Assembly (NCBI GenBank): GCA_038128265.1
Contig: JAYPJE010000094.1
Coordinates: 1 to 12,088 of the forward strand
Length of the DNA: 12,088 bases
From: Gemmatimonadota bacterium
GTDB lineage: Bacteria; Latescibacterota; UBA2968; UBA8231
Reading direction: 5' to 3'
In this document: positions 1,746 to 12,088 of the stretch, piece after piece
Layout: the number at the start of each line of letters is the position of its first letter
How positions within the stretch are numbered: the first letter of the stretch is position 1
The notes under the pieces: generated by a model
Database searches by the model: none
Told to the model about the DNA's origin: nothing
What the model saw: only the letters and a program-made list of their open reading frames with translations
Program-made: the position numbers and the translations under genes

Positions 1746-2234
1746 CTAGTTGTCGTCGTCCTGATTCATTAGGGGATGGGAGAATTCACCCTCGTCTTCG
1801 CCAAACCAGCGGCGCGGGCGCTGGCGCGTGTAGGAGGGGATGCGGTGCTGCTCTTCAGCTTCTTGGCAAGCCACACAGAGCCGAGCCGTCGGCAGGGCTT
1901 CCAGCCGCGCTTTGGGAATAAAGGGACAGGTAGCACAGAGCTTTAGCTCCGTTTCCATACAGGCTTCGCAGTGACCGTACGAACCGTTTTCCAGCTTCTC
2001 CAGCGCAACCGTCACCTCTTCTAACTCACGTCGCTCTGTATCGCCTAGCGCAACCAGCAGCTCCATGGCGCCCGCCTCGACGGCGCGGTCTAGGTCGTCG
2101 GCCTTGGGATCCTGCAGCTCGTCGATCTCCTGCTCCGTGCCGTCCAAGTCGCTCATCAGCTCGGCTCGGCGCTCCAACAACAGCTTCTTGACCTTTTCGC
2201 GTTCCCTTTTGTTCAGCGCAGTCTTCTTGGCCAT
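1746..2234 (-). CDS. TraR/DksA C4-type zinc finger transcriptional regulator (162 aa)
   Basis: Coiled coil with a DxxDxA tip motif (DDLDRA), followed by ALEKLENGSYGHCEAC...IPKARLEALPTARLCVACQE. GAGAGGA RBS just upstream of the ATG. Confidence 0.92.
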   Translation of the reverse strand: MAKKTALNKREREKVKKLLLERRAELMSDLDGTEQEIDELQDPKADDLDRAVEAGAMELLVALGDTERRELEEVTVALEKLENGSYGHCEACMETELKLCATCPFIPKARLEALPTARLCVACQEAEEQHRIPSYTRQRPRRWFGEDEGEFSHPLMNQDDDN

Positions 2235-9670: not shown

Positions 9671-11146
9671 ATGAATAACGGCACTGCCCTACTAGGGCGC
9701 AAAGACGGCGAACCCGATCGCCTGCAGCCTCTCTTGGACCACTTGGGCCTGCTGCTACCCGACGAGAAGGAACGCCGCGCCTTTGCCGACTGCTCGCGCA
9801 CCCCGCTGCCGCCGTCGCTGCGCATCAATCCGCTGATCGCCCAGGCCGAGCAGCTTCACCCGACGCTGGCAGAGCGAGGCCATCCCGTTCCCTGGTGTTC
9901 AAACGGCTATGCGTTTCCCGCAGCTGAGACGCGCCTGAGCCACACCGTCGAACACGCAGCCGGCGCCTATTATCTGCAGGCCACGGCGCCGATGCTCGCC
10001 GTCGAAACCCTCGCCCCCCGGCCCGGCGAACGCGTCCTCGACCTGTGCGCGGCCCCCGGCGGCAAAACAACCCAACTGGCCGCGCATATGCGCAACAGCG
10101 GCCTGCTCATAGCCAACGAAATGAGCAAGAAGCGCATCCCCGCGCTGGTCGGCAATTTGGAGCGCTGCGGCGTCGGCAACGCCGTTATTACGCAGGCGCA
10201 GGGCACGATGCTTGCGCGCCACTTTCACAACTTCTTTGACCGCATCCTCGTCGACGCGCCCTGCAGCGGCGACGGCATCGTGCGCAAGGACCTGAGCATG
10301 CTGCGCTACTGGTCCCCGGACGACGCCCAGCGCCAGGCACAGACGCAAACCGGCCTGCTGCGCGCCGCCTTTCACATGCTGCGTCCGGGCGGCACGCTGG
10401 TCTACTCGACCTGCTCGCTGTCCGTAGAGGAAAATGAACACGTGCTGCTCGCCCTCCTCCAGCGCTACGGCGATGCGGTGGAGATACTCCCCGTTGCCGA
10501 CGTGGCCGCTCCGCCGCTGGCCAGAGCCATCGCCGCCGACCTGCCGCCGGCGCTGGGACATGCCGCGCGCGTGTGGCCGCACTGGCACGACAGCGAAGGC
10601 GCCTTTGTCGCCCACCTGCAAAAACGCGCGCCCACCGAGTGGCCCCAGGTCGCATCCGATGCGCACGCATGGCTGCGCGAAGCGGCCGACGATAGACAAA
10701 CGCTGGACGCCTGCCGCACGCTCGAACACCTGTGGCACTTCGCCATACCGCGCACGGCCGACCAGGTCGTCGCCAGCCGCGGACGCCACCTCGTCATGCA
10801 GCCAGCCGCCAGCGACAGCATCGAAGAGCACCTACCCTTTTTCGTGCGTGGGGGCATGCGCTTTGGTCGACGCCACCGCACGCACTTCTACCTGACGCAG
10901 CAGGCCGTAGCGCTGTGGGGCCATCTGGCCACCGCGCGCTGCGTCGACCTGGAATGGCCACAGGTATGCGCCCTCTTTGTCGGCGAGCCCATAGCACTGG
11001 ACAGAGCGATCGACCAGCGCGGTGAGATTATCTGCCGCTATGGTCCCTGGCCGCTGTGCCGCGCCATGGTCGAGGAGGAAGGCACGCGCCTCAACGGCAT
11101 GCTTCCACGACCCTTTTACCGCAGCGAACTGCGTCAACTCGTCTAA
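9671..11146 (+). CDS. RsmB/NOP2/NSUN family RNA m5C methyltransferase, RsmF/YebU-like (491 aa)
   Basis: GAYYLQ, VLDLCAAPGGKT, FDRILVDAPCSG and LVYSTCS...ENE, so both catalytic cysteines are present. No N-terminal NusB domain and a C-terminal extension, as in RsmF. Confidence 0.92.
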   Translation: MNNGTALLGRKDGEPDRLQPLLDHLGLLLPDEKERRAFADCSRTPLPPSLRINPLIAQAEQLHPTLAERGHPVPWCSNGYAFPAAETRLSHTVEHAAGAYYLQATAPMLAVETLAPRPGERVLDLCAAPGGKTTQLAAHMRNSGLLIANEMSKKRIPALVGNLERCGVGNAVITQAQGTMLARHFHNFFDRILVDAPCSGDGIVRKDLSMLRYWSPDDAQRQAQTQTGLLRAAFHMLRPGGTLVYSTCSLSVEENEHVLLALLQRYGDAVEILPVADVAAPPLARAIAADLPPALGHAARVWPHWHDSEGAFVAHLQKRAPTEWPQVASDAHAWLREAADDRQTLDACRTLEHLWHFAIPRTADQVVASRGRHLVMQPAASDSIEEHLPFFVRGGMRFGRRHRTHFYLTQQAVALWGHLATARCVDLEWPQVCALFVGEPIALDRAIDQRGEIICRYGPWPLCRAMVEEEGTRLNGMLPRPFYRSELRQLV

Positions 11147-11423
11147 GCAGGAAAATACTTCCCTAGACGCAGTCCCTTTCTCGTCCGAATGCATTCGCCA
11201 TCTGCCGCATTCCCCCTTTAAAACCGCACCACACGCATACAAGGGAAGCTTTTTCTCCCTACCCGCACATTTTTTCCCTCCCATGCCGTTGATCCCATCG
11301 ACGCGCTTTCAACATCTTGTGTCCTATCCGTAATCTAGCCCAACATAAGGCGAATAATCCCATGAAAAATTACGTGGTATTACATAGTTTTTTCAAATTT
11401 ATTTTTCATCATAAATAAAATAA

Positions 11424-11436
11424 AATCAATATTTTA
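11424..11436 (+). promoter_or_regulatory. IHF binding site
   Basis: AATCAATATTTTA matches WATCAANNNNTTR exactly, is preceded by an A/T tract, and lies about 30 nt upstream of the sigma54 -24 element. Confidence 0.6.
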
Positions 11437-11465
11437 TGATATTTTTGGTATTTTCTCCAACACAG

Positions 11466-11482
11466 TGGGCACACCCCTTGCA
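11466..11482 (+). promoter_or_regulatory. Sigma54 (RpoN) -24/-12 promoter
   Basis: TGGGCACACCCCTTGCA has GG(11468-69)-N10-GC(11480-81) and is close to the consensus TGGCACGNNNNTTGCW. The predicted +1 (about 11493) coincides with the first base of a hairpin. Confidence 0.7.
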
Positions 11483-11492
11483 ATAGCACCGG

Positions 11493-11581
11493 CAGACAGA
11501 ATGGTCCTCTTGTCTGGGACCCGGAGGCGGTCCTCCCCTCCCCATCATCTGCCGCTCCTCGCGCAGATGGCCTCCGGGTCC
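11493..11581 (+). ncRNA. Structured 5' leader / candidate sRNA module with CU-rich motifs
   Basis: Hairpin CAGACA(11493-98)/TGTCTG(11511-16). A perfect 12-bp stem GGACCCGGAGGC(11517-28)/GCCTCCGGGTCC(11570-81) encloses unpaired GGTCCTCCCCTCCCCAT and the inner stem CATCTGC/GCAGATG with loop CGCTCCTCGC. Confidence 0.55.
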
Positions 11582-11607
11582 TGTTTATACATGGATTTGG
11601 TGAGAAT

Positions 11608-11778
11608 ATGAACCGCACATACACGACTTATGCGGATCGCATGCGCCTACTGCTGCTCTGCATCCTATTTACCAGTTTGAGCGCACTCTTGATCGAACTG
11701 GCGGTGCAAAATACGCCATTCGAACAGGCCCATACTTCGGCAGACATAGCCCACTTGGGTGGCGCTGCCGACCCATAG
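11608..11778 (+). CDS. Small hypothetical single-pass membrane protein (56 aa), absent from the supplied ORF track
   Basis: ATG 11608 to TAG 11778: MNRTYTTYADRMRLLLLCILFTSLSALLIELAVQNTPFEQAHTSADIAHLGGAADP. GGTGAG RBS upstream. Basic residues precede a ~20-aa hydrophobic stretch. It fits exactly between the leader and the 3' hairpins. Confidence 0.6.
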   Translation: MNRTYTTYADRMRLLLLCILFTSLSALLIELAVQNTPFEQAHTSADIAHLGGAADP

Positions 11779-11789
11779 GCAAAAAGAGA

Positions 11790-11911
11790 GGGCCGGCCTC
11801 CCGCTCCCCGGGTAGGTCGGCCCCTTTCTCCCCCGCATCGGCCTCCCCCTCCCCGGGCAGGTCGATGCACCAGCTAAGCGCCGGCCTCCCACTCCTCGGG
11901 TAGGTCGGCGC
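11790..11911 (+). repeat. Three tandem 34-nt hairpin repeats with CU-rich loops (candidate cuckoo-like sRNA)
   Basis: 11790-11823 GGGCCGGCCTCCCGCTCCCCGGGTAGGTCGGCCC; 11835-11868 GCATCGGCCTCCCCCTCCCCGGGCAGGTCGATGC; 11878-11911 GCGCCGGCCTCCCACTCCTCGGGTAGGTCGGCGC. Linkers are 11 and 9 nt, and the outer stem bases covary. Confidence 0.85.
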
Positions 11912-11921
11912 CTATTTTTTT
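11878..11921 (+). terminator. Intrinsic terminator formed by the third hairpin plus T7
   Basis: GC-rich hairpin 11878-11911 followed by CTATTTTTTT, abutting the convergent ubiX stop codon. Confidence 0.6.
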
Positions 11922-12088
11922 AGTCCTCTGCAGCGCCCTTCGAACCGGTCCAGCGCGGAAAGAGCGCGTGGTCAATATCCAACAAACTACAGATGCGCCC
12001 GGCAATAAAATCGCCCAGATCGTCAAAGGTCTGGGGGCGCTGATAGAAGGCGGGCATCGCCGGCAGCACGACAGCCCCCGCCTCTGTT
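11920..12088 (-). CDS. ubiX: UbiX flavin prenyltransferase, 3' end only; starts beyond the window
   Basis: Manual translation TEAGAVVLPAMPAFYQRPQTFDDLGDFIAGRICSLLDIDHALFPRWTGSKGAAED* matches the UbiX C-terminal pattern GAxxxPxxPxFYxxPxxxxD...RW. Confidence 0.9.
   Translation of the reverse strand, partial: TEAGAVVLPAMPAFYQRPQTFDDLGDFIAGRICSLLDIDHALFPRWTGSKGAAED

Follow-up and report, generated by a model that had tools for sequence, protein, structure and literature searches.

In Firmicutes, the small RNAs LhrC and RsaE/RoxS carry multiple unpaired C-rich seeds aimed at Shine-Dalgarno (SD) sequences. Closest to the locus analysed in this study are the cuckoo RNAs, comprising CcsR1-4/RSs0680, NfeR1 and ar14 (RF02344) (PMC4615179, PMC8034643, PMC10746234). 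NfeR1 is described in PMC10746234 as blocking translation through pairing of its loops with the SD, independently of Hfq and with loops that are redundant. NrsZ is driven by RpoN, has repeated stem-loops with the loop ACAGGCAG and activates rhlA under NtrBC (PMC4253122). FlmE is cut from the flgE mRNA, carries one anti-SD stretch and is RpoN-linked within the flagellar hierarchy (PMC11187230).

The window analysed here, a stretch of 12,088 nucleotides, is contig C94 of a 4.29-Mb genome (60% GC, 84% complete) from a family of Ca. Latescibacterota. Analysis of the gap between an rsmF-type gene and the 3' end of a convergent gene, which we take from its sequence to be ubiX-type (its full protein has no Pfam call), revealed the features listed in Table 1. 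As judged by sequence comparison, the conserved unit is a predicted sigma54 promoter followed by a structured RNA of ~90 nt. A sequence-only reading of this DNA had listed an AT tract, an IHF site, a -24/-12 promoter, hairpins, an ORF, a trio of hairpins and T7, in this order on the + strand; all were found, and three conserved elements further upstream, at 11243-11386, had been overlooked. Folding is above chance at 11493-11590 (z -4.8) and at 11785-11921 (z -7.7) against 200 dinucleotide shuffles, and the promoter, RNA and ORF of this locus are kept in relatives. The ubiX-type gene is the neighbour of the unit in most relatives, the RNA lies beside a different gene in two loci, and in several genera the upstream neighbour is a gene other than the rsmF/rsmB-type methyltransferase gene.

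Table 1. Features of the locus (positions in the window, except for the ORF2 example)
Feature	Position	Strand	Description
dksA/traR-type gene	1746-2234	-	In 68/76 family genomes; syntenic with the RNA locus
rsmF/rsmB-type rRNA methyltransferase gene	9671-11146	+	Pfam PF01189, E 1.5e-49; neighbour, outside the unit
Element A	11243-11278		Purine-run/T-run pair ~225 bp upstream of the promoter; conserved in relatives
NrdR-type box 1	11307-11322		16-bp palindrome
NrdR-type box 2	11338-11353		31 bp after box 1, 15-bp spacer
Element C	11371-11386		16-bp palindrome common to motility promoters
AT-rich tract	11388-11455		Carries IHF-consensus site
sigma54 -24/-12 promoter (predicted)	11468-11482	+	GG-N10-GC; GG, AC and TTGC invariant in the alignment
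5' hairpin P1	11493-11516	+	CU-rich loop; varies across genera (folding)
Core RNA	11516-11582	+	Outer stem P2, C-rich internal loop (~11531-11545), inner stem P3 (covariation)
Inner stem P3	11546-11569	+	Invariant CUCCUC loop at 11555-11560
ORF1	11608-11778	+	56-aa single-pass membrane peptide, basic N-terminus; optional module
Three 3' hairpins	11785-11912	+	CUCCCC/CUCCUC loops; optional module
U7 tail after hairpin 3	11915-11921	+	From sequence; U-rich tail after last hairpin in close relatives
Convergent ubiX-type gene, 3' end	11920-12088	-	Adjoins the unit
ORF2 example	L016:1659-1823	-	Plus 10 other loci

Comparison with the cuckoo RNAs bears out the analogy drawn in the sequence-only reading, since several anti-SD loops on variable stems, a variable number of modules and a small protein nearby are common to both. 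However, the cuckoo loops are CCUCCUCCC, for which no exact motif was found in the window, whereas the loops here are CUCCUC/CUCCCC. The cuckoo rule of 2-4 adjacent hairpins with conserved loops and variable stems describes the 3' trio but not the core, which unlike the cuckoo RNAs is a nested stem with an internal loop. Cuckoo promoters are of the RpoH/RpoD type in Alphaproteobacteria, in contrast to sigma54 in Ca. Latescibacterota, and cuckoo CIN1 loci adjoin a DUF1127 protein, where this locus has a membrane-anchor peptide without DUF1127. Rfam gave a single sub-threshold match of ar14 (RF02344) to the 3' trio (21.8 bits against a cut-off of 58.8; E 0.11), and no family reached its gathering score in 20 orthologous loci; the expectation that no Rfam family covers the locus was thus borne out. 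The unit would be cuckoo-like in action and lies outside the cuckoo family by its loop motif, Rfam score, partner protein and promoter type.

Similarity to NrsZ of Pseudomonas extends to the sigma54 promoter and to repeated stem-loops whose copy number varies between species; the loops here are anti-SD CUCCUC/CUCCCC instead of ACAGGCAG, which does not occur in them, and NrsZ was absent from the Rfam matches of the window. The NrsZ analogy made earlier stands for sigma54; to NtrC or nitrogen control there was no pointer, the upstream sites suggesting motility and NrdR. RpoN linkage, anti-SD sequence and a flagellar tie are common to FlmE (CJnc230) and FlmR (CJnc170) of Campylobacter jejuni, likened here by description only; unlike FlmE, the RNA here comes with a dedicated sigma54 promoter, a set of several loops and a pair of NrdR-type boxes. 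LhrC and RsaE/RoxS resemble it in their C-rich seeds but are unrelated in lineage, promoter and structure. The traits of CsrB/RsmZ-type sponges, namely GGA loops on the transcribed strand and co-occurrence with csrA, were not seen.

Analysis of the core RNA among relatives revealed compensatory changes in 9 of 20 pairs in a free alignment. In the alignment of 34 distinct sequences, which was fitted to the covariance model and hence leans towards it, compensatory changes occur in 15 of 20 pairs and 98.2% of cells are paired, against 32-50% in slid controls. The core RNA is read on the + strand because G-U pairs outnumber A-C pairs by 54 to 3, and a - strand reading was ruled out on the same grounds. 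Loops stay invariant while stems change across relatives; of 35 rows, 34 read CUCCUC at the P3 loop. Six C/U-rich loops of the window are predicted to be open, with unpaired probabilities of 0.5-1.0. Consistent with the anti-SD role suggested for them from the sequence, the single-stranded CUCCUC/CUCCCC loops are complementary to the SD of this genome, which is purine-rich: of 737 clear starts, 81 have AGGAG, whereas a control window gave 2. In one genus (L050, L051, L053-L055), the 5' end of the RNA has an additional, diverged P3 hairpin.

A covariance model built from 12 leaders found the RNA in 38 of the 76 genomes of this family, in 16 of 18 genera and at one locus each; 87 genomes representing 13 further families of the phylum gave no match. 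The locus is single-copy, has a fixed chromosomal position and is inherited vertically. The ubiX-adjacent DNA was compared for 20 of the 38 model-negative genomes. All 14 genomes examined from one non-flagellated clade have lost the whole unit by a clean deletion, with rsmF abutting ubiX; a single box is all that remains in one of the 20, and in five of the 20 the unit is reduced but keeps the promoter and hairpins of the CUCCCC type, a form missed by the model. In metagenomes, 23 of 80 pattern matches carry both RNA and promoter, and 54 of the 80 gave no score against the model. Hence, of the co-conservation of promoter, ORF and hairpins on which the earlier reading had relied, promoter and RNA are kept while the ORF and the 3' hairpins are optional.

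The predicted sigma54 motif lies upstream of the RNA in 43 of 43 orthologous loci, that is, the 38 found by the model and the five reduced ones. The genome contains rpoN and 17 matches to the sigma54-activator domain, 11 of them strong, in agreement with the proposal of a sigma54-driven unit and with the regulators that it presupposed. The position of the motif places a predicted +1 near 11493. GC content falls to 12% at 11401-11450, against 60% genome-wide, and an exact match to the IHF consensus occurs at 11424-11436; this consensus by itself matches 46 times in the genome. An IHF-like site near -44 or -33 occurs in many relatives, the AT tract is absent from eight non-flagellated genomes, and the genome has three IHF/HU genes. 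Other sigma54-type sites of this genome were also recorded. Two strong ones, L117 (G000:C10:67251, +) and L118 (G000:C85:10253, +), are followed by structured, apparently non-coding stretches without an Rfam match at E 1. Paralogous promoters at G000:C12:88640 (-) and C23:18029 (+) each precede a near-identical hydrophobic ORF of ~32 aa, with a YceI-domain gene after one of the two units. Further sites at G000:C9:67877, C3:59643, C92:10233 and C19:34584 precede genes that, from their N-terminal sequences, are presumably groES, dnaK, a small heat-shock protein gene and pspA.

ORF1 was found in 16 of the 38 loci (15 by script, one by eye) and is missing in the 22 others, which keep the RNA. Its dN/dS spans 0.11-0.65 over eight pairs, with 0.21 for the comparison with the nearest relative, and 0.07-0.29 within the membrane core, from which it follows that ORF1 is under purifying selection. 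The small transmembrane protein postulated from the sequence is therefore real (dN/dS about 0.2), and its description as non-DUF1127 also holds, as no Pfam family was matched at E 0.1 and none of its 37 homologues has one. Its neighbours in a protein atlas, unnamed clusters below 0.9 and a Blr-divisome neighbour at 0.77, gave no support for an identity. Two ORF1-like peptides were observed at locus L033. ORF2, an Arg-rich protein family of ~55 aa and three helices, has its gene between ORF1 and the hairpins at 11 of the 38 loci; no copy was detected in this genome. The best 11 of 16 matches among 1.8 billion proteins align along its length; its three-helix model has a pLDDT of 84, an uninformative best VIA Z of 5.5 and no Foldseek match, and the family has no Pfam assignment, with no DUF1127 in five of five members. 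ORF2 is a possible RNA-binding partner.

The 3' trio consists of three 37-nt units at spacings of 45 and 43, and its repeat unit occurs nowhere else in the 4.29-Mb genome, so that a dispersed REP element was rejected. The number of 3' hairpins ranges among loci from none to at least five; their stems differ between genera while the loop stays the same. The scripted list behind these counts also includes a small number of fortuitous folds within ORFs. Together with its A-run, hairpin 1 may in addition terminate the gene opposite, and the U7 tail is the probable terminator of the long transcript. The T7 noted earlier is thus present at 11915-11921, but a simple terminator scan did not call hairpin 3 and U7 on the + strand; it gave one - strand site, at chance level.

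Where no module lies downstream, the core is followed by a U-tract (nine or more U within 14 nt) in 12 of 15 loci, representing five genera; of the 22 loci with an ORF or hairpin downstream, none has one. One locus was unparsed and the groups were assigned by hand. As the U-tract is present where nothing follows and absent before modules, the core is a small RNA gene that is read through in the long versions. ORF1, ORF2 and the hairpins are lost independently of one another. The 5' structure, earlier taken for a leader, is consequently the core RNA gene itself: 21 of 38 loci have neither ORF1 nor ORF2, and many have no 3' hairpin. Nor do the ORF and 3' hairpins form the conserved system of CcaF1/CcsR type that had been proposed, both being optional and the core persisting without them. 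Our best explanation accordingly reads the ORF1 peptide as a passenger module of the RNA unit. In metatranscriptomes, one contig in each of two runs bridges core and ORF1 without loose ends (11512-11772 and 11521-11775), which lends weak support to the single transcript over leader and ORF proposed earlier, the contigs being unstranded, of depth about 2 and probably from one campaign, with DNA carry-over possible. The eight listed contig differences are all within the ORF, five of them at third positions. Two further RNA runs, X3 and the unlabelled X4, contributed nothing on expression.

Three further upstream elements are conserved and shift together by about one helical turn between genera. 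Element A agrees with the reference at 17 or more letters in 31 relatives, the top genome site of its matrix is this locus, and by eye it is present in the reduced loci too; it is a candidate activator (enhancer) site. With a matrix of box 1 only, the best second match lies at 31/32 bp in 20 of 26 loci. An NrdR operator is normally a pair of 16-bp palindromes with a 15-16-bp spacer (PMC12051234), and two 16-bp palindromes with a 15-bp spacer were found here. Such an operator usually lies over a reductase promoter, in contrast to its position ~150 bp upstream of the sigma54 promoter of an RNA gene. In this genome nrdR adjoins a ribonucleotide reductase gene, at which a similar box pair was found. 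A matrix trained on relatives, with this genome left out, ranked this locus 1st of 15 pairs and the zapA, reductase and smc sites 2-4 (the reductase-gene site 3rd), a ranking that is partly circular because box picking used a pre-set consensus. The box pairs before zapA and smc lie at G000:C3:14479 and C1:123294, hinting at a wider NrdR regulon.

Element C matrix scores of at least 10 bits were found upstream of flagellin in 22 of 29 genomes and of fliM in 16 of 28, compared with 0 of 29 for a dksA control. The element also occurs 71 bp before the sigma54 site heading a cheA-cheW-cheR-cheD-cheB cluster, which adjoins an NtrC-type gene at G000:C1:68992-70410. These occurrences suggest that element C is a motility operator, predicted to mark the flagellar and chemotaxis regulon; for further sites that score highly in this genome, no connection with motility is apparent. 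A search for flagellin was positive in 37 of the 76 genomes, 33 of them with the RNA; in the other four the locus is missing from the assembly or at a contig edge. The RNA is kept in 10 genomes in which flagellin was not found, and element C in two of those. Of the five non-flagellated lineages that could be assessed, the unit is deleted in two, element C and the AT tract have gone from another two, and the remaining one retains both; loss together with flagella thus concerns about four lineages, few events and genomes losing much else. In this genome, element C was observed at G000:C2:144256, C9:3614, C1:68930 and C2:8344, at a divergent flagellin pair, fliS/fliM, the chemotaxis cluster and a globin-domain gene. 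About seven flagellin-like genes were counted, and csrA lies in a flgK-flgL-fliW-csrA flagellar operon (G000:C2:108100-108860).

Overall, our analysis makes it somewhat probable that the unit encodes a trans-acting, Hfq-independent anti-SD small RNA, cuckoo-like in action and tied to the motility regulon. Its promoter, structure, strand and modularity are evident from comparison between relatives; we infer its silencing action, its processing and the identity of its regulators. The sigma54 promoter with its four conserved upstream sites would drive a + strand RNA in which covarying stems hold C/U-rich loops open. At minimal loci the core hairpin would end in a U-tract, giving a transcript of about 100-200 nt; in this genome a weak tail would allow read-through over ORF1 and three more such loops to U7, for about 430 nt. 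By pairing with the purine-rich SDs of a number of mRNAs, the loops would keep ribosomes from loading, in the manner of NfeR1, and extra hairpins would add redundant seeds. Transcription would be set by a regulator binding element C and modulated by nucleotide-loaded NrdR, so that the RNA would be made within the motile programme and in step with dNTP supply.

Candidate targets in this genome were compared across relatives. A flagellin target, with a perfect 10-nt match to the P3 loop here, was rejected, the match being found in only 2 of 15 genomes with a readable flagellin start. Among 10,152 start windows in this genome, the ribosome-binding site of the dksA-like gene gives the best match to the P1 loop (13 bp); it ranks in the top 1.5% in 6 of 24 genomes and shows one compensatory change in a second genus; a permutation without this genus gave a median p of 0.23, which leaves a weak lead. 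An 8-nt match to ftsZ occurs in five of seven genomes of this genus with no support outside it, and hexamers complementary to the loops were found at ftsZ in 18 of the 34 genomes with the RNA and in 10 of the 18 without it (p 0.12).

The lack of a specific mRNA partner among these candidates would suit a protein-binding or decoy RNA, whose repeated C/U loops titrate a protein (e.g. a pyrimidine-binding factor) or another RNA. The loops are numerous, nearly identical and variable in copy number, like those of sponge RNAs, which also fits such a decoy, as does the failure to find Hfq in any of the 76 family genomes or ProQ in this 84%-complete genome. We nevertheless consider it unlikely, given that the loops are the complement of this genome's SD; its CsrA-sponge version is excluded because the GGA motifs would fall on the - strand and a search for csrA came up empty in 12 of the 38 genomes that carry the RNA. 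A reading as an obligate dual-function mRNA, whose system would consist of the peptide and of 3' hairpins released by processing, with the 5' structure as a leader that controls the ORF, appears quite improbable. The core with its own U-tail persists without ORFs and hairpins, the modules are lost independently, and ORF1 is a membrane peptide without DUF1127, which opposes the CcaF1-like form; these observations outweigh the purifying selection on ORF1, the RNase E/G gene present in the genome and the additional small protein, Arg-rich and with three helices, encoded at 11 of the 38 loci. The RNA contigs stop just short of the hairpins, as this reading would have it, the missing cover over the hairpins and rsmF being no evidence about their expression.

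A short hydrophobic peptide with an antisense lock is the general pattern of type I systems, and ORF1, with anti-SD motifs on both sides, could be a small membrane toxin whose translation is locked by the flanking sequences. Such a cassette is highly improbable for a single-copy, vertically inherited locus at a fixed position, with ORF1 missing in 22 of 38 RNA-keeping loci, no phage match and a predicted fold that does not pair the loops with the SD of ORF1. The unit abuts the 3' end of the convergent gene and an A-run precedes hairpin 1, as would be expected if the hairpins were mostly structural and served the convergent genes as terminators in both directions or as REP-like elements. The loops, however, are invariant, the strands are asymmetric, the promoter is dedicated and has four sites upstream of it, dispersed copies are lacking, and two loci keep the RNA beside a different gene; this reading is thereby largely refuted and is the least credible of the alternatives. 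Beyond the anti-SD small RNA itself, a wider scheme can be drawn, which we regard as doubtful: dNTP (through NrdR) and motility inputs would meet at one sigma54 promoter, broad Hfq-free SD masking would switch cells between swimming and replicating or dividing, NrdR would act as a cell-cycle regulator (reductase, smc, zapA and the RNA), and two new, optional small proteins would serve as effectors.

The combination of elements, which the sequence-only reading did not recognise as described, was not found in the literature searched (mostly open-access main texts; supplementary RNA-motif catalogues could hold it), nor was any sRNA report for Latescibacterota. This study thus describes a well-supported and apparently undescribed RNA family outside Rfam, in a phylum for which no sRNA report was found. 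The candidate NrdR-type box pair and motility palindrome at the sigma54 promoter of an RNA gene are new here, and offer two regulatory links, one an NrdR-type operator on a sigma54 RNA gene and the other a motility operator of the flagellar and chemotaxis regulon. The series of loci, from a bare ~100-nt RNA to two ORFs with several hairpins, is a natural record of a dual-function transcript being assembled or stripped down. Our results suggest a further origin of multi-loop anti-SD silencing, in a lineage for which searches gave no Hfq, and, if the dNTP and motility switch is true, the RNA would provide a post-transcriptional choice between swimming and replicating states in an uncultured phylum.
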